A stretch of DNA of 55,959 nt, filler included, from Platydemus manokwari (lineage: Eukaryota): assembly GCA_037951405.1 (NCBI GenBank). It is 5 parts of 5 records of this genome, joined end to end, with 100 filler letters (N's around TTAATTAATTAA, not from the genome) between each part and the next. Parts side by side here need not be neighbours in the genome. Positions count along the whole stretch, not along the records: positions 1 to 12,884 come from JBBMOY011925828.1; 4 more parts are not named here. The stretch is one strand, 5' to 3'. The first letter of the stretch is position 1, and every line of letters starts with the position of its first letter. The notes under the pieces are model-generated. The model was not told the DNA's origin. It saw nothing but the letters and a program-made list of their open reading frames with translations, and searched no databases. Positions 1-36,870 of this stretch are shown here, in pieces. The position numbers and the translations under genes were made by a program.

Positions 1-563
1 GGTGCAAATCTAGATGTGTCCATTGACGAAATGGCAGCTCGAGCAGAGGTGAGCATTTGAGTCAGGTCCGCTGCGTTAGTTTCATTCAGTTTAATTGCAT
101 CAATTAAAATTGGGTTCATCGAGGGTCCTGAGTTTTTTACGGTCTGTGTGGCAAGTTTTCTAAATAAAATGGTATCCGAGATTACTTTATTGATGTCGTT
201 GCGCAGTTGTGGGAGAACTGGTGTGTGGTAAATTGCTGAATTGTTGATATGGTCGAGGATATGCTGAATAATGAAGAGGCCACAGTCGTGTGAGTTGAGT
301 TGAAGTGGCAGGTCTGGTAAGAAAGATTGGTTGAGGATAAGTCCATCTTTTAGAGCGCATAAGTTCTGGAAAAGGTTATCCAGTTTGTTCCAAAGGCATC
401 TTTGTTCTGCTGATAGAGATTTAGTTGCTGGGTCAATGTAGTATGATGACATTTTGAGGCGGTCTGCGATGTAGAGATTCCAGTGATTGTTGTTCCAGTG
501 GATTAGCCAGTAAGCATTTAGCCAAGTTGCAAGTTTCCTGAAGGGGAATGAAGGATGGACGCG
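1..563 (-). CDS. Ulp1/SENP-family (peptidase C48) cysteine protease domain; partial ORF running off the window edge, probably part of the mobile element
   Basis: Not in the ORF track. Manual minus-strand translation is open from at least ~563 to 1: RVHPSFPFRKLATWLNAYWLIHWNNNHWNLYIADRLKMSSYYIDP...LPLQLNSHDCGLFIIQHI...FA. It has catalytic His (HW, 483-485), Asp (YIDP, 432-434), oxyanion Gln and Cys in QxNxxDCG (Cys 282-284), matching the C48 pattern. Confidence 0.85.
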
Positions 564-1959
564 GATGCAACAGTTAGAACATGAATACTTGGAGGAAGTG
601 AACCGACAAGCTCACATAAAGCATCTACGTGAACGCTGTTTAGTCTACCAAGAGGCTTTCCAAAAAGGGAAACCATACCAATCTTCACTGGATCATTCAT
701 ACGCTCAGGCTAGTGGCACCAGCTCAAGCAGCTCCACTAATTATCCGAAACTGATTTATAAGTTAGAAGAAGCACGGACTCTTCTGACAGCTAAAATGAA
801 TAATTATATGCAACTCACTCCGTCGAGAGAGCAAACAGACACCTCCAATGGGTTACAAACCCCTTGTCTATCACCGATAGTCATGCGCGTAGAGAAAGCA
901 TACACATGCAACGAATACGAAGAAGAAGGTGACACTACCAAGGTAGTAGACACGTGGGAAATCGAAGAAATTCCCAAGGAAAAGACAAATGAAGCTTAAC
1001 AAAGTCTTACTCAAGTAATCACTCCCGAAAATGTGTTCGCGACAATCGAATTAACAACTGGGGAACAAGCAACGTTGACTCAGTTCTCTCGTAACTTAGT
1101 AAGGGAAGCTCAAAGGAACCCCCTAGACTAACAAATGATCAAGAGTATCTTAAATAATCACATTTACACTGCTATACCTACAGATGTATTGGCTGCCGCT
1201 GCACCAATACTGGTTGAACTCTTGGACAAAGGAGCCATTTACCGAAAAGAAGTACAGTTACTCCTACAACGAAATGGGCTAGCCATTCGGAGTCAACCGC
1301 AAGGAGCACCGATGCTCACGCTGCACATTAGAACCAGTCATCACGGGAACTGGCTCAAGATATACTCTTGCTTCTCACACGTTTGCAAATTAAGACAGGA
1401 TATCCGGCAGGAGAAATCAATCACGGAACCATTCATCATCACAAATCAATCAAATCCGGTAGATGATGACGAATATTTAGTTGACGTAGGCTGCTTACCA
1501 GACTTCGTCACAGTAGTAAAGGTACTAATAACGCCAGTAGAATCTAAACAATGGAGGAGAATACCCACATAGTCCAAGGCAGAAATCGAGCCAGCAACGG
1601 GAAGAGTAGAAACACAGTTATCAGTAGTTTTGGATGAGGACATCCAAGAAACCTCTCAATTCATGGAATACCAGGCAGGGTATGACCCACAACCATCTCC
1701 ACCGCCACCAGAGCCCGTTGTAGATGAGATCATAGAAATTGTGGACCTCGATTCACCAGCTATTGCAAGCAATCAGAACCATGAGGAATTCATACGGGAG
1801 ATAGAAAACCCTCCTCCAGAACCAGAGCCACCGATTGTGCCAACACAGGACATTAGTGAACCACCGCGGAAACGAAGAAACAGAGACACACAAGCCCACA
1901 CCAACAGTCAAGTACAAGCACAGTTGCTACGAGGACTGGCGGACGACACAACTATAAAT

Positions 1960-2445
1960 TCCAAGCAAGACATTCAACAATGTCTCTTGCGAATAGCAAA
2001 AGGGATTGATCCCTACAATCAACGCATAACAGAAGTAACCACCGAGGGTTACGAAAAACTACTCAGCAACATAAGCAGATACATGCCTAGGATTTGACAG
2101 ATCACACATGATCATCCCACCGTTGATTCAGAAAACGTGCTATGGGAAATTATTAAAGGTGGAATAACTGCATCAAGAGCCAAAATCATACTGATCAATT
2201 TGGCAAATAAAATCATGATGGCGTCATACGGGGACACATCACACTACCAAGAAACATTGCAACAGACGATCAAATTAGCACATCGAACCATAGGAAAATG
2301 GATTCAAACGCAAGGAGGATGGACCCAGTTTGGATACAGCGAGTCACTCACCACAGAAGGACTAGGTAACCTCAACAATAATGGGTTAATAAACACATTG
2401 GTAAAAGTTATTCTTATATGCAGCTTGATAGGAAAAACATCTATG
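1960..2445 (+). pseudogene. Bcl-2-like domain within the element polyprotein (one internal stop at 2095-2097)
   Basis: BH3-like IQQCLLRIAKGID (~1972-2010), BH1-like EIIKGGITASRAKIIL (~2146-2193; NWGR replaced by TASR) and a strong BH2 IGKWIQTQGGWTQF (W at 2299). These are followed by hydrophobic LINTLVKVILICSLIG. Confidence 0.75.
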
Positions 2446-4203
2446 CTCACCGCATATGATTGTTCGAATCCCAAGCTGTCCACAATGTATTCGTTAGTTG
2501 ATCTGTTCGAATGTCCAGCAGTCAATGTCAACAGCGTCAGACAAGGGCCACGGGATTCCTATTACTTGTATCAGGAATTAGAGTTCTATCGAACTACAAT
2601 CAAGGAATGTAGGGTCACGAAGGCTACATTCGAATACTATTGAGGAGTCTTTAGCCGCTCATCTGTACTAGATGCCAAACTCATTGCTCGCAGCATCACA
2701 ATCGCACCTAAAGCTTGCCAAGATGCTTTCGTACAAAGAAAACTCAGAGTCGACAGCGAAGACACTCTCACAGCAGAAGTAGGCGAGAGACTTGTTGAAA
2801 CAATCACACGCGGAGGCAAAATCGGAACAGACTGGACATGTATTGGACGAAGCAATGGAGATATTGTCTCTCATGTGGTAGAAATCGAAGACTACACCGT
2901 CGAATTAGTACAATATGAAGGGACATTCGACATGAAAACCGAAAACATGACTCAGTAGCCACATTGTGTATCCAAGTTTAATAGCTGCAATGTAGACACA
3001 GCCACATTAGTATACGAAGCCCGAAGAGCTTACTGTGACGTGGCACTACTCAAACAAGCATCGTTCATCGCAATCAACGGAAGCGCATGGGACCATCATA
3101 TTCCAGGCTGACACAAGGCCGACTAGATGGACGAATCGAAGAAGAGACATTGATCAAAAAGAGTGCTTCAATGGTACTAATATCCGACCAACAAACCGAC
3201 GCTATACGACGGATACGCGGACAGTCACTGGACAAATGTGGGACGCTAATGTACGAAACAAACTATCAAGGGATCTATGTGAGCCACCAGAGTGCTCGAG
3301 ATGCCAAAATTCTGAATGTCAAGGACGTCAAACTCACTACATACACCAACAATAAGGCCGATTACATATACCACGATCTGCTGCTACAATTAGCTACAAT
3401 TAGCAGAAACCCAGCATCATCAATGTAAAAGGGATCAAGAGATCGCACGAAACCGCATGGGCATAGTTATCACAAATCAGGACCTCGAAACACCCATTCT
3501 GATGGAAAATGGGGTGTACAGTCGAATCAGTGGTGAAGCATGGCACACTTACGAGTGTGAGCCAATTCAAGTCGCCATCGCAGACACTAAGAACTGCACA
3601 AGGGAGTTAGCAGTAATCTACAAGGAACAAACCAGGTACATTCAACCCATCACTCACATATTGCTTCCACCACAAAAGACAGAATGTAATCCACTGATTT
3701 CACCATTGTACAAGATTAATGAACAATGGGTGACTATACCGGATCGAAGACCACCTCGAAGTCCAGTACAACTGCTTAGGTTGGGAAACTCATTGACTAC
3801 TCGCGAATTCCAGTCCATATTTTCCACTGGAAAAAGGGGAGTCTACACCTCTAAGGACATTGCCGAAGCACGCAGAGCATTAGGATTTTACGAGCTCCGA
3901 GTCAGGGGAATAACAGAAATCATCAGGACAGTTTATCAGGATAGTGCAACCAGTCCGAACTATGATCACTTGTTCACAGTGGAACATCTCAAGAAAGCTG
4001 CTCACCATGTCACCTATCAAATATGGGGAGCCTTCGCAGCTTTTGGAACATTCATTACAAGATGCGTCGGCATTTATGTCATCTCCATAGGACTAAAAGT
4101 CATCATACAACGATTAGTATTCATGTATGACTTGTACAAACTGTTTGGCTGCTAATCAAAAATCATTTGCGGTATGTGCCCGATAATTGCCAACCGCCTC
4201 TTT
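2446..4203 (+). pseudogene. Chuvirus/Monjiviricetes-like fusion glycoprotein (env-like), disrupted by 3 stops and 2 frameshifts
   Basis: Ordered motifs typical of chuvirus-type glycoproteins: LTAYDC..SLVDLFEC; CRVTKATFEYY*GVFS (stop where the Cys of the CG motif is expected); CGTLMYETNYQGIYV; LTTYTNNKADYIY; QC...GVYSRISGEAWHTYECEPIQV; CTRELAV; PITHIL; CNPLISPLY; GVYT. The C-terminal hydrophobic block is IWGAFAAFGTFITRCVGIYVISIGLKVII...LFGC*SKIICGMC. Confidence 0.75.
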
Positions 4204-4679
4204 CATAAACATCATCACGGAAGAATGTACAAAATAGAAGAGATGATGAGAGAAATGAGACACGAAGTTCACTCTGCTCGACACGCCTCTTTTCGATCTG
4301 CCGTTTACGAGGAACAAGAAAAATACTACCCCTCCGACGAGGACAATGACAACGATAACGGCTATAGACCAAGTGGAACTGAGTCAATCATGATCGAGAA
4401 ACAGCCAACTCAACCCACGCTGCGGATGCAACAAACGATGAGAAACTACGAACAGGAACCATGCCTATCAACAGGCCAGAAACTATAACCGATATACCAG
4501 GAGAACAGTCACAGATACAGCCTCCTTCATACAGACAGTATTATACTCAGGTACAGTACCCAACTCAGGAATTACAAGTTATGGCCCAAACTGAACAAAT
4601 TACTGCGGAAGTAATGGTCAGAATGAACAGACAGAATCAACTGGGTTACAATGAATACTGCAACATAACCAACGAGTCA

Positions 4680-5180
4680 ACATGCACCGTCAAACTGACC
4701 CCGATCAGGATTAATAGACATCATGTCTTTGCATTAATTGATACGGGTGCTGATACTACAGTTATCTACCCTTGCATATTAAACGTACCAGAACTCATGA
4801 GTATCGGAAATACTAACGGAGTATCTATCATCGGAATCGATGGAAATGAACTACCACTCTTGGGATTACTCAGTTGCAAGATCCACCTCTGTGATCAGAC
4901 CATACCTATCGTAACAAGGGTTTCAAAGCTAAGCCCGTACGATTGCGTAATTGGAAAAGACACAATCCGACAGCTAAAGGACATCATGTACGAATGCGCT
5001 ACCGGTTCATTCATCAAAATGGTCAGAGACAGAAAAGCTCATCGAAACAATGTATATGCGGAACAGGAAATCATCATACCCCCTCGCTCAGAAACAATGT
5101 GTTATGTACAAACGAACCGGGCAGACGACGAAGAAGTTCTATTCGAACCCAGCAGTGCAATGATAGACCGCACGAATATA
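4680..5180 (+). pseudogene. Retropepsin (retroviral-type aspartic protease) plus post-protease linker, truncated before RT
   Basis: FALIDTGADTTVI (Asp codon 4740-4742), flap IIGIDG and CVIGKD. It is followed by VYAEQEIIIPPRSETMCYV, the kind of linker seen between PR and RT in metazoan Gypsy elements. Confidence 0.85.
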
Positions 5181-5700
5181 TGAATTTTTTATTTAAGTAC
5201 TTAAAAAGAATTCTAGTGGTTTGAAATTAAATATTAAATACACTTGAACTTCAAAGTCTCCTAAAATTTAACTATTTGAAAAACGGATCAAACTAGGTTG
5301 AATTGCAATTCTTTTGAAAATTTTCGAGGATCTCTTTCTCAACATTAGAAGAAAATTGAAAGATACTCTAAATTTTTACAATTATTTTATAAAAATAAGC
5401 AATGATATTATTAAATATGTTTGTAGTTAAGTAACTCAATTTATTGTTATAAAAAATTAAATTTAAAAACTTAAATAATCATATTGAGTGTTGTGCGTAG
5501 AATAGAAACGTGGTTTAAAAATTGTTTTATTCCTATTGGACATTCTAAAAAGTGAGATATTAACTGATAAATACTAATAAATTAAACGTCATAGTTATAT
5601 ATAAAATTAAGTTACAAAATTATCTAATGCGCGGAAATTTATTATTACAGAAGTAGGTCATTTCTTAACTTAAGCCAAAAATATTCTATATTGAACTAAA
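5179..5700 (+). repeat. Dispersed AT-rich repeat family A (copy 1; begins mid-element)
   Basis: TGAATTTTTTATTTAAGTACTTAA...TTTGAAATTAAATATTAAATACAC and the later ATGCGCGGAAATTT block recur at ~53560-54055 (+). Parts recur at ~36620-36870 (+) and ~46308-46640 (-). Confidence 0.75.
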
Positions 5701-6010: not shown

Positions 6011-9000
6011 ATGGATATATCAAAGAGAAATTACTCAAACTTAGAGGATAAATTTTCCATGTAAACAAATATTAATTTTCATTAAAATTTAAGGAATAAA
6101 ATTTTTAGAAAGATCCCAGAAAAGCAAAATAGTAATCTCACAACTGCAACAATGCTTTTAGAAAAGCGTCGTGAGATGATTGAAATTGAAAATGCATTCA
6201 ATTCTCAAAAAGATGTAAGATGAAATTAGATATTAGCAAATTGTTATAAATGATTTAATTCATTTACATTGTTGGGAAATTTATTTTATTAATTTTAAGT
6301 TTTTTCTATCTGAAACTTGCCCATAAACAAATTACATAATATTTTCTAAGTGAATTTCAATATTGTTTAATTTGTATTAAATTAATTAATATAATTTGTA
6401 TTTCAAGTTATGTGGCTTTTCAAAACCATTCTTATTTCAATTTCATAGCGATTTTTTCGATGATATTTTGACAAAGTATTTGTCATTTTGAAATATTTGT
6501 TAAAATTGAATATATAACTATCAGAGAAATATACTATTTATAATAATAAGTCGCTAATTAACAACATTTATTTAATCAATTTGAATTATCTATTCAAAAT
6601 TTTGTAGAGTTTTTACAAAATAATAAACAGAAAAATGAAATTTCAACAAATTATATGAAATGAATTTTTATTTTTATCTATGTTATTGGAATATTTTTAT
6701 TCATAAATGAAATTCTCGAATCGAAATTGTAGGAATTTAAAATGAAAATGGAAAGTTTTCGACAAAGAAAACACGAATTGGACAGAAAAGAATTGGAATT
6801 ATCATCATCCTTATTGAAATTTAATAAATTTCTCAAAGAAAACGAATCGAAACGAAACAGAGCTCTCCATAAAACGTCAATCGAACTGGAAAATCAAAAG
6901 AACAAAGACAAGGAAATAATGGAGTTGGTTTGGTATTTGGTGTTTTAATATATCTTTAATATTCACTCCACAACAAAAAACAACAGTTTCAAACAAACAT
7001 TGGTTCTTTATCGAAATAAACAAGAAAAATTGAAATCGAAATTGGAACGATATCGATTGTATTTGACATTTTTCGAGAGTGTTATAGAGATAACAGAGGA
7101 ATTCACAGAAATCAAAGAAATCGTTGATCGTTATTCGACGCTTGCTAGTGCTCATGATGTAAGTTCAATGAAGGTGATTGGATCAATGTTTTGATGTCGA
7201 TGATTTCAGGATTTATTGGAGCGAAATAAAAATAATCAAATAGCTGTCAATGAGGAGAAACAAAATATGATGCAATTAAAAGAAGTTTTAATTTTTGCAT
7301 TTGTTTTAATTGATTGATTTTTATAATTTAATTTTAAATTTAAAATTTCATTCCGTGATAGAAGGGGGAGATAATATCATTTTAAAATCATTTTTCTATA
7401 CCAGTTCAAGACATGAATGATGTTAATATATAATGCCAAAAAATTTGACTTACAACTCATCGATCAATCTTTTGAGTTGTTTTAATTTTATCAAGAACCT
7501 CATAACATTCAATATTGATATTTTGTTGATCTAGTTTGATTTGATTAGATTTGATATTATTTTCAAAATTATTATTGCTAGACGCTTTTATTTTATAAAA
7601 CGCGCATTGAAAATGAATTGAAAAATCACGACACCAGATTATATTTTCATTACAATGATTTAAACAAATTAATATTTTATATTTTTTCAAATTTCAATTC
7701 ATTATAAATCCTCACATCTTCCATTTCTTTAAAATCTTTGATTTTCTCTGAATTCTTAATTATATCTGTGTCGAATTTTCTAGATAAATTTATCTATGTA
7801 AACATTTTTTTCGCATCTACTTTCTATTTTCTTTATATCACTTCTACATATTCTCTTTATCTTTTATACAACTATGCTGTATCCTTCTTACATCTTTTCT
7901 ATAGGTTCCTCCTCCTCTCCTATACTTCCATGCCACAGATAATCTCAGAATCGAATTCAAATGCGTGGTCGCCATGTAAGCCCCTACTATTTAATAAAGA
8001 ATGCATTGAAACCTAAGTGAAAAGTCAAGCCACAAAAATATATTTTTATTTCAATTATTAAAACAAATAAATATTTCATAAAAATCTGATTTTAAATTTT
8101 TTCAAATTTCAATTTATTATAAATCCTCACAATTATCATTAATATTGCAGCTATGTAGGAGCGTGTTTGGAATTATATTCTGGATTTTATTAATTTGTCT
8201 TTCCTATAATTTTGATTATTAATATTAAAATTACAATTTCAAGTTAGTCTTCATAACTATCTATTTAAACAAACGATTTAATACACAACGCTCATTCGTT
8301 GAATGGATGGCTCCATTTGACGAACCGATATTAATCCCTGAATTGAAAATCTTTCTTCAATACGTTCTGATCGTCCTTCCATTAATAAGAACCATGAGTA
8401 GAATGGACTACAAGACGATCTCTCCTTGGACAGTTTGTTGAAATTGTCAATGGTTTGATTTGAAAAATATTGAGTAAATGAAATCTGTCAATTGATCATG
8501 AGTCCATCATGAGGATGATTATATCAAAGATAAGTGAGATTTCGAATTGGTGAAGATAAAATATTTTATAATTAAATTTTATAAAACATTTTTCAAAGAT
8601 TAAAAAAAACTTGGAATAAAATTTGTTATCTCATAAAAAAACTGAACAATAAATTATATTTAATTAATTGGATAAAACTAAAATTAGATCAACATCTCTA
8701 TTCCAGCTGAGGTCGCGAAATAATAAACAAATAATCAATCATTAAATAAAATCAAAATATTCTCGCTCAATTTTGTTTGTACTTCAATGTTTTCATTTTT
8801 CTTTTGACTGTAGAATAGCAATGGGCAGATTATTCGATGTAATAATCGGCAAGGAATTTTACAATTAGAATATGACCGTCTTCAATCGATAAGTTTGGAA
8901 AAATCAGCAGAATGGAATTCCTTAATCAGTGAAGTGGCCCAAAAAACTTTGGAATATGGGAAAATAAAAATGTTAGATAATTTGATTTTTATGTCCAATA

Positions 9001-12801: not shown

Positions 12802-13168
12802 AAACCAAAAACCCACATTAATTAAAATGTAGGCGTGTGGGCGGAATGATATTAATAATAGATATAAAATTTTTTCGACAAATTNNNNNNNNNNNNNNNN
12901 NNNNNNNNNNNNNNNNNNNNNNNNNNNNTTAATTAATTAANNNNNNNNNNNNNNNNNNNNNNNNNNNNNNNNNNNNNNNNNNNNTATTTATTACTTTAGT
13001 TTTTTATTATTAGAAATTTTTAAGTGAAATCTTTTAAAATTAAATAAATCAGAGAATAAAATTTATTTTAAAAATCACATTAAAAATAATTTTAACGAAT
13101 ATAATTTCAGATAAATATTAAAATTTTCTATTTATTGCTTGCTTTCATTAGTGACATTATTAAGTTTA

Positions 13169-14851
13169 ATGATGCTGGATTTACCAAACAATTACGATTG
13201 TCTAATTTGTTACGACAATTTAGAAGATGTCGACTTTTTCCGGATGATTTCATGCAAACATGAATTCTGTAAATCGTGTTTTTACGAAATCTTATTCAGT
13301 GACGAGATTGAAATAGTTCGATGTCCTTACGACACAATGCAAGACGATAAATTTGAATTTGTCGAAAAGAATGAAAATAATGAAAGAAATATTTTGTTCA
13401 AAAATAGTGCACAATATCGCCTAGAACATATTCCTGATGCCATCGAATATTTTTACGACGAAATTGAAAATCATTACTTTAACGTGCTAAAAGTTGCCAT
13501 AAAGAACAATGATTTAATGATAAATATCGATAAAACGTATGCAGAATTCTTACAAAATTGTACTCTTTTAATAGGTAGGATCAATGGTAACAATGATACT
13601 GAAATCAAGAACCAAATAAAGGAATTAGCACTTCAGCACGTTGTGACGGTCAATAATTTTCAAAATAACGAACAATTGAATCCCTGTATAAAGTACAATA
13701 TTATTTATAATTCTATAAAACATATGGACCCAAATAAAATCAATCCTAAAATGATTAAAAAGATTTTCGATTGGAAGTTGATCGATAAATTATTAAATAA
13801 TTTTGGAAATTTTAGTTGCCATGCTTTATTTCAAAGTGAAAATTTTACCAACCTTAAATTCGTCGAGAAATTTACAGAAGTAACCAATCAATCGATTAGT
13901 TTGAGGAAATACATGTCAATGTTCATTATTTCGATTATTTTATCAATATCCAATAGCAAAAACAATCTTTACCAGCAGGCACTGCCTAATATTTATCGAA
14001 ATAGTACAGACAGTTGTCTCGTTTGTTTCAGACAGATCGATGGAATACAATACGCAAAATTTGCTGAATGTAATCACAAAATATGTATTGATTGTGTCAA
14101 TAAATTTATGATGACGAATTGTTGCTGTCCATTTGATGAAAAAGAAGCTAATCAAACATTAATGATTATGGAAAATGATTTGTGGATATCAACGTATCAA
14201 TATCTGTTTAATAATCATGCCGAAAATATAAATTCAAAAATCAAATCATTTTTAGGCTTTTGCAGTGAAAGAGTTTCAAACATTGCATCAATACTCTCGG
14301 ATATTCTAACATTTTTCATTCAATTTCATCAAACCATCGAATCGGATCCCGAAACACCAAACATCACAATGTCGGACGCAATGAGAAAAATTATCCTTCT
14401 CCTATTTGACCATTCTGGATTGAGTAAACTTCTTCAAGTGACACAATATTCCTACCAAGCTTACCTATTTAACTGTGAAATGATGGCAGATCAGTGTCGA
14501 TTGAATATTAATAATAATAACAATAAAAGATTCCACAAATTTACGAGAGATTTGAAAAGGGTTGTCACAGCAAATACAAAGTTTCTGAGCAAAATGCACA
14601 AATCCCTGATTGATTTTATCAGTAAAATTTACAATTATTTATGGCTATCACACATGGATGTTCATTTGAAATATTCGATTATTCTGAAATACTTTTTGAA
14701 AATGCAGGATATTTGTGAGTTGGTTTTTCAATGTAAAAATCCAAATGAATGTCAATGTCCTATGAACCAATCAATGGAACAATTGAAAACCATTATGGAT
14801 AAATTAAGCAACTTCTTGATAACAATGAAAAGAGAAGGAAAATGGCCGTGA
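13169..14851 (+). CDS. Intronless protein with two RING fingers (putative E3 ubiquitin ligase), ~560 aa
   Basis: Long ORF in very AT-rich DNA; the first ATG is at 13169 (the ORF track starts at an upstream TTG). RING1 is CLIC..CKHEFCKSC..CPYD and RING2 is CLVC..CNHKICIDC..CPFD. Each is followed by a helical region. Confidence 0.8.
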   Translation: MMLDLPNNYDCLICYDNLEDVDFFRMISCKHEFCKSCFYEILFSDEIEIVRCPYDTMQDDKFEFVEKNENNERNILFKNSAQYRLEHIPDAIEYFYDEIENHYFNVLKVAIKNNDLMINIDKTYAEFLQNCTLLIGRINGNNDTEIKNQIKELALQHVVTVNNFQNNEQLNPCIKYNIIYNSIKHMDPNKINPKMIKKIFDWKLIDKLLNNFGNFSCHALFQSENFTNLKFVEKFTEVTNQSISLRKYMSMFIISIILSISNSKNNLYQQALPNIYRNSTDSCLVCFRQIDGIQYAKFAECNHKICIDCVNKFMMTNCCCPFDEKEANQTLMIMENDLWISTYQYLFNNHAENINSKIKSFLGFCSERVSNIASILSDILTFFIQFHQTIESDPETPNITMSDAMRKIILLLFDHSGLSKLLQVTQYSYQAYLFNCEMMADQCRLNINNNNNKRFHKFTRDLKRVVTANTKFLSKMHKSLIDFISKIYNYLWLSHMDVHLKYSIILKYFLKMQDICELVFQCKNPNECQCPMNQSMEQLKTIMDKLSNFLITMKREGKWP

Positions 14852-15981: not shown

Positions 15982-18900
15982 CTGATACAAAATAGAGAAC
16001 GAGGAGGAATGTTGATGAATAGGAACTCAATGCACCATATAATGTCATGATTCTCTGCAAATGGTATGGAGCCCAACAAGAGAAGAATGATATCACCACT
16101 GTTGCTAAAAAGGAAAAATAAATATTTTTAACAAAAGAAAAGTTTTGTAAATATTAATAATAATCACTAATAATATTTTTAAAAGTATAATATAATTAAT
16201 TTTAGACGACAAGCATATTCTGGTTAGATTTCGAGAAGTTCTGATGACATGAAAATATGGGAGAAATGGAAGAAGATTTACAAAAACGAATATAAAATAG
16301 ATAAAAGACGATGTATATAAGATATATAGTAGAAAAAAGAAACAGACTCTTCGAGTTTATTAGATTGGCATGGTAACTTGTTAAATCTAAAATAATTTCC
16401 ATTGATAATTTGGCGGGTTCTTATATTGGCGTAAACTAGTGTGAATGTATTTTGAAGTGAGAACTACTATTGCTGGTGACATTCTTTAAGTCTTTATAAA
16501 GAAATATGCCGGAATATTGGTGTTTCACGAATGTATCATTTCTTTTGTCTCATCAATGATCTAGATAATATATGTGGAGATTATAAAATTATTATTAGTA
16601 ATTTATAATAATAATTTAAACAATTTTAGCCAATATTTAATTTTAACCATAAATTCTAACCAAAAATAAATAATTTTTTATCCTAATTGATTTAAAGGTT
16701 ATTATACAGGCAACCCTCATTAATACGAAAAATTAGAAATTGATTTCATTTCGGTTTGTAAATTAATTCGGATAATAAAGGAATTTAAAACCTATATGAT
16801 TGCCATATTAATGATGAAATTATTAAGAAAAAGATAATTATTTATTTAAAAAATCATCTAAAATTTTTTGTAAAGTTTTCCTTTGAATGAATTTCAGTAA
16901 ATCAGCTTTGACGTCTTTTGAATTTTTATTGTATCATTGGTTATTTTTTGAGTAGAGCCGTTTAAAGAAGAATTTATTTTGATGACAATTTCAATTTCTT
17001 GGAATAAATTGCTTGCACTAATGTTGTAACTGTCATCGACCTGACCATCTTTAGCATTAAGTACAACATCTTCAACAGTGTATTCTTGATACATTGCAAT
17101 GATTTCATCATCATCAACGAATTCTTCTGTTTGGATCATATCCTCTTCAAATATTATCTGGTAAAGCTTATTATTATGTGTCTTAAGAACGTGATCTGAT
17201 GACAAGTTTTTTCAGCATAAGATCCGAGAATACATGAAATAATCGCAACCTTTTTGAAAAAATTTTTGATGGTTTCTTCTTTCACATCTTCCCAAGCTTC
17301 GTGGGGTATCAATATGGCTTTCTTAAGATTAACAACAAAGGATATTGATTGATCAAGCTTTTGAGTATAATATTGAGTATAACCTCTGGGTTAATTCAAT
17401 TTTTCAACCGTTTTTTTCTATGGGTTGAAATATCAACATCATTCATTGAATATGCTTCTCCAGTTTCAGATTAAATCGATTTTTGAATCTATGGAACCAT
17501 CTTTTGCTTATTTAGAGGTCATTAACATATAGTTTTGTTAAATTCCTTGGCTTTTGTAATGATAACTTCATCAGTCACGTAACCATTTATCGTGTCCATT
17601 TGAGATATCCATTCGATCAATGGATTCTCAAGCAGAGAGTGAATTTTCGAAGATTGTCTGGAGTAAGTGTTTGAGCTTTCACAATTTTCCCATTTCTCCT
17701 ATTTTTTCAAAATTTCTGATAAAGTAGGCTTCATAGGTCCATGTTTAATTCTGTTCTGATAATTTGAGACAGTTCACTCAGCGACATTTTCTTTGACACC
17801 TTTATTGCACAAATCATTGCCTTTTGATGAATGGTAATTTCTGTTCTTTTTCTACCCATATGGATATTTAATTTAAATAAATTAAAATTGTAAACAAGCT
17901 TAATATTTAAACAACATTAATACGAAACTCTTAAAAATTATTTGAAATTTAATTCAAAAACGAGCTTTCCGATTGCGGTTCATGAAGTTTCGTATTAATG
18001 AAATTGACGAAATAAATAATTTTTTTTCGGTCTATAAAGTTTTCGGATTATTGAGGACTAACTGTACTATGAAATTATTGGCCATAAGGTTCACATTAAT
18101 TATCTAGATCATTAATGTGAGAAGAGTATAAACTAAAGGTGATTTTTTTTCCTGATAAATCATATACTTCAACTTATGTCTTTTAAACAGAACATCAAGT
18201 TAAGGTTAGCATTATTTACTTAAAAATACAATTTCAAGAACAAATATTAATTTATATTATTTTATTTATCAGAAATCAATCAGGATATATTATTGATTTT
18301 CTGCTATTTAACTTGCTATTAAATGAATGAGTTATTTTAAAATAAATCATTAGATTTAAGATTTATTTAAATTAAAACAACCAAATCATTAAGCTCTTTA
18401 AAAGTATTTAAAGGAAAATTTAATTGAACGCAAATATTTTCATTTAATTTATTTGATTTAAACTTTTAAAATAATAGTAAGGACTGATCATTGTTTGTTT
18501 TATCAGATTATTTTTACTAATTAGATATTTTTCACATACACTCACACATTGTAACGGCCTTTTGCATCGAGGATTTCAACGATAGTAATTGATTGAGAGA
18601 TTGTTCGGAAAAATATTATAAAAATTATGTTAAGATTAACAGCAGTTAAAATTTAAAATGAACTCATAAATATTCTGAAAAAATACATAAAAATATCATG
18701 ATTGTAACATTGACGAGTTGAATGAAATATAAATTTACCCAACATTTTTATCACAGCTTTTCTTGATTTCAAAGATTTGCTATTGAGATTTGTTGCTAAT
18801 GACGATGTAATAAATAACTGCCTAGCAATGAGAATATAAAGAATCAAAATAATAACCATGGGAACAACGAAAAATATAAATGCAGTCGCTTTTAACAATG

Positions 18901-19347
18901 CAGGAAAATGTGGTATTGACAAGTCGGGAAAGCAAGACAGTGATTGAGGAATCTGTTCTCCAGGTTGATACCATCTCGGTTTTTCTTTCAATTCCGCAGA
19001 TATGCACGAGCTGACATTAATCGTAGAATTTTTTAAATATTCCATTGTGTCGTTTGGATATGAAGCGATGTGTTCCGATTTAGACATAGCGCTGATAGGT
19101 AAAGAGAAGAATAAGGCAATCACCCACGAAAAGCCGATGACGACGCAAGTTCGCTTTCGACTAGATATTACGTGGGCTTTCATTGGAAAACAAATGGCCA
19201 CATAACGTTCCACACTGAAAGCTGTTATCGTGAGAACGCTTGTTATCGGTGTCAATTCAAGTATTAAGATTCTTAAATGACAGAAATAGACACCATATCT
19301 CCAAGGATATAATTGTGATTGGGTTTGAATGAGTTCCACTGTTAGTC
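15982..19347 (-). CDS. Rhodopsin-class neuropeptide GPCR, neuromedin-U/pyrokinin/CAPA receptor-like; partial model (2 internal exons)
   Basis: Exon 19347-18739: GLTVEL..YPWRYGVYFCHLR..SVLTITAFSVERYVAICFPM..FFVVPMVIILILYILIA..KSRKAVIKML. Exon 16104-15982: ATVVISFFSCWAPYHLQRIMTLY..LYFVS. Splice sites are canonical and phase-compatible. The TM1-2 and NPxxY exons were not found. Confidence 0.85.
16707..18064 (-). mobile_element. pogo/Tigger-like DNA transposon, internally deleted and decayed, in the GPCR intron
   Basis: TA-flanked imperfect TIRs: CAGGCAACCCTCATTAATACGAAA, and CAGTTAGTCCTCAATAATCCGAAA as the reverse complement of the right end. The minus strand from ATG 17859 reads MGRKRTEITIHQKAMIC...LENPLIEWISQM..VTDEVIITKAKEF (CENP-B/Tc5 HTH). 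A DDE_1 tail follows (NLKKAI..EAWEDVKEETIKNFF) with an acidic C-terminus; the central DDE region is missing. Confidence 0.85.
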
Positions 19348-19707
19348 CTAAGAGTATAATAAATACAAATATTATTTTTTAATGATAATACTAATAATAA
19401 CAATAATAATAATAGTAATAGTAAATGTAATAGTAAGTATATTAGTAAAAATAATAATAACAGCAATTAAAGTAATAATAGTAATAGCAATATTAATACT
19501 AATAATAATATTAACGATAATACTAACAGTAATAATTATAACAATAATAAAAACAATAATAATTATTATTATTATGTTAATAATAATAATGATTATAATA
19601 ATAATATTAATACTGAAGAGTCAACCAAATAAACAGTTAATAAAAAGAAATAACGAAATTAATTTATTAAAATAAGATGAAAAGAGTTTTGGTTGAAATG
19701 ATCTAAA

Positions 19708-36619: not shown

Positions 36620-36870
36620 AGTGTATTGTAAAAAACTATATGGTTTATTTATTTATATTCTTTAAAAACATTTTGAATTTTTTAATGTAAGTACTTTAAA
36701 ACAATTTTAGCTGTTTGAAATCAAATATTAAATACACTAGAGCTTCAAATACCACTAAAAATTGGTTTTTTATTAAAGGGATGAAAGTAGGTCGAATTGA
36801 ATATGATTTAAAATTATTGAGGACCCCTTTTTTAACATAAGAAGTGTTGGGGTTCCCGGAAAATGACAGT
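36620..36870 (+). repeat. Repeat family A copy
   Basis: AAAACATTTTGAATTTTTT...GTTTGAAATCAAATATTAAATACACTAGAGCTT is shared with the 5179, 46308 (-) and 53560 copies. Confidence 0.7.

Follow-up and report, generated by a model that had tools for sequence, protein, structure and literature searches.

Analysis of the window, the whole stretch of DNA studied here (55,959 nucleotides, filler included), showed that it carries a decayed but near-full-length envelope gene (env) of the Pfam family PF24664 (Monjiviricetes_fusion). The gene lies within a surviving fragment of 4.7 kb, in which a SUMO-like part, a Bcl-2-like part, env, and a protease follow in that order (Table 1). The env reading begins in frame 1 with an LTAYDC motif at position 2446. 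A Pfam scan returned three consecutive pieces of PF24664, ordered as in the profile: 2644–2955 (profile positions 87–193 of 653, E = 0.0015), 3039–3425 (positions 245–329 of 653, E = 0.0003), and 3394–4152 (positions 332–583 of 653, E = 2.7e-39). The last piece, at 135 bits, exceeded the curated cut-off of 27. In-frame stops occur at 2641, 2956, and 4153, and alignment of relatives by tblastn moved the reading from frame 1 to frame 3 near 3090–3160 and back to frame 1 near 3390–3410. The family alignment has 14 conserved cysteines, 13 of which could be read in order, and three N-glycosylation sequons were found in the in-frame parts. A hydrophobic peak comparable to the internal segment in Table 1 stands directly ahead of the xYDC motif in five of the six polyprotein relatives examined. 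These results agree closely with the sequence-only reading of this DNA, which had described the LTAYDC start, ordered cysteines, a C-terminal hydrophobic block, stops at 2641, ~2955, and 4153, and frameshifts near 3100 and 3390; the profile search that it had proposed as a check proved significant. The copy at 2446–4203 is unable to make an env protein.

Table 1. Positions of the env gene and of the features around it in the window
Feature	Position	Strand	Basis or remark
Ulp1/SENP-like cysteine protease fragment	3..512	-	PF02902 E 5e-6, above cut-off
Decayed polyprotein frame 1, likely of a Burro-type Gag-Env-Pol Gypsy element; Gag-bearing 5′ part outside the window	514..4488	+	
Ubiquitin/SUMO-like domain (by homology)	1246..1530	+	Aligns to P0166 residues 744-841, E 1.4e-8
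Bcl-2-like helical segment (BH1/BH2-like end), in frame with env	2137..2340	+	Weak direct hits
Internal hydrophobic segment, predicted env signal or anchor	2377..2457	+	Kyte-Doolittle peak 1.69
Class III fusion glycoprotein (env) of gB/chuvirus type, broken by three stops and two frame changes	2446..4203	+	PF24664, cysteines, AlphaFold2
C-terminal hydrophobic block, predicted env membrane anchor	4027..4134	+	Kyte-Doolittle peak 1.93; long helix in model
Retropepsin (aspartic protease)	~4700..4980	+	Frame 3; PF00077 E 1.2e-4, PF09668, PF13975
Start of PR-RT spacer, element cut off	4980..5180	+	Homology to relatives runs to ~5180

The polyprotein frame around env is broken in the same manner. 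Frame 1 of 514–4488 is interrupted by stops at 997, 1129, 1570, 2095, 2641, 2956, and 4153, and by the frame-3 stretch near 3100–3400. With six stops in ~860 codons (514–3090), together with the frame changes and the truncation, the polyprotein copy is dead. The frame is colinear with relatives from ~1060 onward, with no match detected for 514–1059. The ~200 codons at 514–1131 gave no hit in Pfam and matched neither the fetched relatives by phmmer nor the accessory ORFs of two metagenome loci (L001, L002). The ubiquitin/SUMO-like piece gave no direct Pfam hit, and the matching region of P0166 bears ubiquitin (PF00240) and Rad60-SLD (PF11976); by eye, the di-glycine end is absent from this domain. 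Direct Bcl-2 matches for the next segment were weak (PF00452, E = 0.078; TIGR00865, E = 0.071), and P0164 and P0009 aligned to it with their own Bcl-2 segments (E = 3e-5 and 0.002, respectively). A PDB sequence search with this piece found no Bcl-2 protein, and a structure search (VIA) with P0009 gave no Bcl-2 fold among the matches listed, a list filled by one domain.

Env shares its frame with the SUMO-like and Bcl-2-like parts, and the protease of this decayed copy lies in another. A programmed env/protease frameshift was considered and rejected: no canonical slippery heptamer was found by eye in 4383–4488, and relatives read through in frame, so decay is the likelier cause. The retropepsin follows env after a short distance (~165 codons), as the sequence-only reading had it in placing env 5′ of the protease. 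Its best match is the RT-proximal protease of P0165, P0166, and P0167, and ~60 codons beyond it align to the same spacer of relatives; protease and spacer together matched Gypsy-type polyproteins at E = 6e-18. The truncated spacer piece gave no dUTPase hit in Pfam. Among the open frames of the window, none was recognised as an RT or integrase ORF of the element, and RNase H was likewise absent from them. Composition is uniform across 514–5180; the GC content is ~0.43–0.45 in the polyprotein frame and ~0.43 over 1–5180 as a whole, against ~0.25 in host DNA beyond, and GC falls from 0.44 to 0.2–0.3 at the element end, where an AT-rich repeat starts at 5181. This dispersed repeat (5181–5470) cuts off the element, and further copies lie near 36675, 46308 (inverted), and 53613.

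Upstream, strand asymmetry flips at ~500–600, and the coding-strand composition of the Ulp1-like fragment resembles that of the element. The piece at 3–512 is directed away from the polyprotein, and neither the fetched relatives nor the accessory ORFs in L001 and L002 gave a match to it. No mention of Ulp1 was found in the accessible text of PMC6431247 or PMC13524379, and a literature search found no account of it. The fragment could derive from the element itself by inversion, or could belong to another transposon.

To identify relatives, frame 1 of 1132–4203, with X at stops, was searched with phmmer against 1.84 billion proteins. The search returned 635 proteins at E ≤ 0.001, of which the 150 best were listed; with a best value of 5e-94, a chance match of env is excluded. 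The best nine of the 150 listed (of 635) were retroelement polyproteins, with ~30% identity and E values from 5e-94 to 4e-50. Among these nine best of the matches listed, seven have a protease after env in the same ORF; one of the other two has Bcl-2 ahead of env, and the last has no other Pfam hit. Named chuvirus glycoproteins scored lower (Tacheng tick virus 4, E = 2e-29; Wufeng shrew chuvirus 2, E = 2.5e-25). A word-index search for longer proteins with the C-terminal piece found nothing, and the full HMMER search found them. In the longest relatives a single ORF encodes, in composite order, a Gag zinc knuckle, ubiquitin/SUMO-like, Bcl-2-like, env, one or more protease, RT, RNase H, and integrase domains, not every domain being detected in each protein. 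Where RT-bearing relatives were scanned, RT_RNaseH (PF17917) was present in 11 of 11 and H2C2 plus rve integrase in 10 of 11, a combination which we take to be the Ty3/Gypsy pattern.

Colinearity with these relatives extends across the junctions of the fragment. P0005, P0009, and P0022 align across the SUMO-like/Bcl-2-like/env junctions of the window, and P0165, P0166, and P0167 read from env into the protease without a change of frame. Three metagenome loci (L001–L003) were colinear with the window, all three over the SUMO-like part and env and two of them over the protease. In two of these loci, both near-complete relatives, an accessory ORF further downstream matched an RNase_T-type exonuclease (L001:10617–12104, E = 1.4e-5; L002:12085–13470, E = 0.0011). 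Several retropepsin-like copies per polyprotein were observed in P0154, P0165, and L001:2–10279, with up to seven stretches in P0154. One relative, the Gypsy polyprotein P0008, has the order env-PR-RT-IN and stands at NCBI under a Flavobacteriaceae MAG, labelled a hypothetical protein; it is probably animal DNA that ended up in a bacterial bin.

The fold of env was modelled with AlphaFold2 from window positions 2098–4233, read in frame 1 with X at stops; the middle of the input is therefore out of frame, and the model draws on an alignment of relatives. The model reached a pLDDT of 76.9. Foldseek comparison found chuvirus G proteins to be the closest viral structures (best E = 1.7e-31, against chuvirus glycoprotein models), and solved herpesvirus gB was matched at a best E of 6e-10 with low TM-scores of 0.2–0.3. 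The natural, unbroken relative P0009 was modelled with a pLDDT of 82 and matched gB at E = 7e-14 (Z = 10.4 over 419 residues, rmsd 8.6). On these models the assignment of the window env to the class III gB/chuvirus-type fusogens holds. The class III fold that the sequence-only reading had predicted is thus recovered in both the window model and P0009, and its identification of a chuvirus-type class III glycoprotein is upheld by PF24664 and by the fold matches to chuvirus G and herpesvirus gB.

Kinship of env was examined in two unrooted trees. The first held 103 near-full-length proteins, of 156 env-bearing proteins, plus the in-frame parts of the window, with 53 left out as too partial; all 19 polyprotein-type rows and the window formed one clade (SH-aLRT 99). 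A more careful tree was built from 40 of these 104 rows and again placed 17 polyprotein rows and the window in a clade (100/100, stem 0.47). Two named chuviruses and a beetle-associated row (P0023) fell outside it. Members of the clade are deeply diverged; the window env is a long branch (1.1), with identity to its nearest rows of at most 35–36%. Being unrooted, without a mixture model, and with two named viral rows, these trees show kinship only, and neither donor nor direction.

These data are best explained by a broken class III env within a truncated SUMO-like/Bcl-2-like/env/protease fragment, likely from a Burro-type Gag-Env-Pol Ty3/Gypsy element and likely in a free-living flatworm, and we hold this explanation to be very probably correct. 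Because the window lacks Gag, RT, integrase, and LTRs of the element, the Gypsy and Burro status rests on relatives. By the relatives' PF17917, integrase, and protease match, the carrier is most likely Gypsy rather than BEL/Pao, the case that the sequence-only reading had considered. Pfam families typical of BEL/Pao are Peptidase_A17, DUF1758, and DUF1759. No scanned relative shows such families, and the match of protease and spacer to Gypsy-type polyproteins also counts against a BEL/Pao carrier akin to Anakin. Anakin, a BEL/Pao element of mosquitoes (Dezordi 2020, PMC7642597), is likewise an LTR retroelement with a chuvirus-like glycoprotein, and the window holds no RT by which BEL/Pao could be excluded directly. 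However, the Anakin carrier is a BEL/Pao element in insects, whereas the relatives of the window are Gypsy-type with env inside the polyprotein ahead of the protease, and a BEL/Pao carrier is very improbable. Just as improbable is a stand-alone chuvirus glycoprotein EVE that integrated beside or into an unrelated retrotransposon fragment. Such EVEs beside Gypsy fragments are common in insects according to PMC10084718, a study of arthropod Jingchuvirales EVEs that also lists a flatworm chuvirus genome, and the frames of env and protease differ in this copy. Yet env is in frame with the Bcl-2-like and SUMO-like parts, three relatives align across those junctions, composition does not change along the fragment, and the nearest relatives, with which env groups at 100/100, are polyproteins rather than stand-alone G proteins. 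The colinear polyprotein relatives largely refute this possibility.

The origin of the env lineage is a separate question. An independent, lineage-specific capture from a chu-like virus infecting flatworms, with the Gypsy polyprotein clade descending from one event, would be compatible with a Burro-type element at this locus. In its favour, env is structurally nearest, among viral proteins, to chuvirus G; the envs of the polyproteins make up a single clade that leaves out the beetle-associated row; and a Jingchuvirales virus is on record from a tapeworm, itself a flatworm (PMC7305300). Against this, the clade does not branch from within the named chuviruses (two named viral rows, unrooted), and its stem is long and its members deeply diverged. 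According to PMC13524379, moreover, cnidarians, ctenophores, tunicates, nematodes, and bryozoans have env of the gB type, and the authors argue that it was not captured recently. Such a capture is conceivable but rather doubtful. Less likely still, the Gypsy polyprotein envs could be an old lineage, sister to or even the source of chuvirus glycoproteins, with the window copy a deep, compact branch. The sequence-only reading took env for a separate acquisition from negative-strand RNA viruses and for a fossil of chu-like viruses that infected this host, which the analysis does not show: in the unrooted trees env falls within the retroelement polyprotein clade, outside the named chuviruses.

Comparison with published elements places the Burro-type fragment among known systems. 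Burro/GYPSM1 is a giant planarian Ty3/Gypsy element with a SUMO-like motif ahead of BCL-2 (PMC6431247; Arkhipova & Yushenova 2019). Its env lies between BCL2 and protease, with multiple matches to arthropod and fish mononegavirus fusion glycoproteins; the available text words this env as homologous to gypsy Env and mononegaviral fusion proteins, which differs from "class III". Burro-type elements are giant, 25–30 kb with LTRs, and have a dUTPase-like domain between protease and RT, and decayed fragments with stops and frameshifts are described from Dugesia japonica. The window shares with Burro, as described there, the order SUMO-like, BCL2, env, protease. Unlike Burro, it is a fragment without Gag, MATH, BIR, ankyrin, RT, integrase, or LTR, and its env and protease are out of frame. 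Its env–protease interval also differs from that of P0164–P0167 in having no extra protease or ankyrin modules. Judged from the published description and from relatives, membership of the window element among Burro elements is likely.

A second account (PMC13524379; Chary & Hayashi, eLife) describes, from Nematoda, Bryozoa, and Platyhelminthes, GAG-ENV-POL gypsy elements whose env is gB-type and Chuviridae-like. Nine are flatworm elements, six of them from Schmidtea (Smed_errantivirus_1–6), which have a C1a configuration of cysteine bridges. In its accessible text the gB-type env is argued to be ancient, and the entry mechanism of these errantiviruses is stated as unknown; neither Bcl nor Ulp was found in the accessible main text. 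As in these errantiviruses, the window has a gB-type env upstream of pol, that is, ahead of the protease. Compared by eye with six rows of supplementary file 3, its env domains I–II were closest to Smed_errantivirus_4 (8 copies), with which they have the most motifs in common (TITRGG, YEGTF, YETNY). The elements described there are intact and multi-copy, whereas that of the window is dead and truncated. With the G protein of Jingchuvirales (Tacheng tick virus 4), the window env shares the Pfam family, the 14-cysteine frame, and its best structural match. Unlike it, chuvirus G (~20–25% identical to the window) is encoded by a stand-alone ORF, begins with an N-terminal signal, and falls outside the clade of polyproteins.

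The window element is thus a new, divergent, dead member of an already published layout and family, and an ordinary new copy in that this layout has been published for the giant planarian Burro elements. The sequence-only reading missed that layout and env are known from Burro elements and flatworm errantiviruses, and that a flatworm Jingchuvirales virus is on record. As one decayed copy the element contributes little: a further divergent family in flatworms, whose identity to the nearest relatives in the databases reaches ~36% at most. The family itself matters because a viral fusogen, apoptosis regulators, and replication enzymes are joined in one polyprotein. It matters also because gB-type envelopes may have passed from virus to retroelement or the reverse; the window copy decides neither matter.

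Viral polyproteins with internal signals are produced in a manner on which a working of the intact ancestor can be modelled. A single long polyprotein would have been translated, with its Gag, SUMO-like, and Bcl-2-like parts in the cytosol. The hydrophobic segment after Bcl-2 may have acted as an internal signal that threaded the env ectodomain into the ER. There the ectodomain would be freed, form its disulfide bonds, and acquire glycans. Through the C-terminal anchor the chain would then pass back to the cytosol for the protease, RT, and integrase, so that, as we propose, the protease could free Pol. With an env trimer, particles could have fused with further cells of the animal that carried them and so spread from cell to cell. 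By analogy, the env of the window element would likely work as that of Burro-type Gag-Env-Pol errantiviruses, with fusion as its predicted function.

The host was placed with a DDX21/DDX50-like nucleolar RNA helicase gene at 39594–41297 (minus strand), which is intronless with a GC content of 0.41. In the match list alone its top matches were molluscs (~50%), and the placement came from a tree of 30 rows, with no planarian or named triclad row, in which it was sister to eight neodermatan flatworms (99/95). This bears out the non-arthropod host of the sequence-only reading, and on the evidence of this gene a flatworm outside the parasites, such as a planarian, fits. Other features were noted in the window. 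An apparently intronless open frame of 578 aa with two RING fingers lies at 13115–14851 (plus strand), and a host gene with DUF4200 (E = 3e-14), its introns very short by eye, at 6733–7280 (plus strand). By eye, an exon resembling a neuropeptide GPCR was seen at 18653–19378 (minus strand), and an apparent decayed fragment of a mariner-type transposase at 42854–43267 (plus strand).
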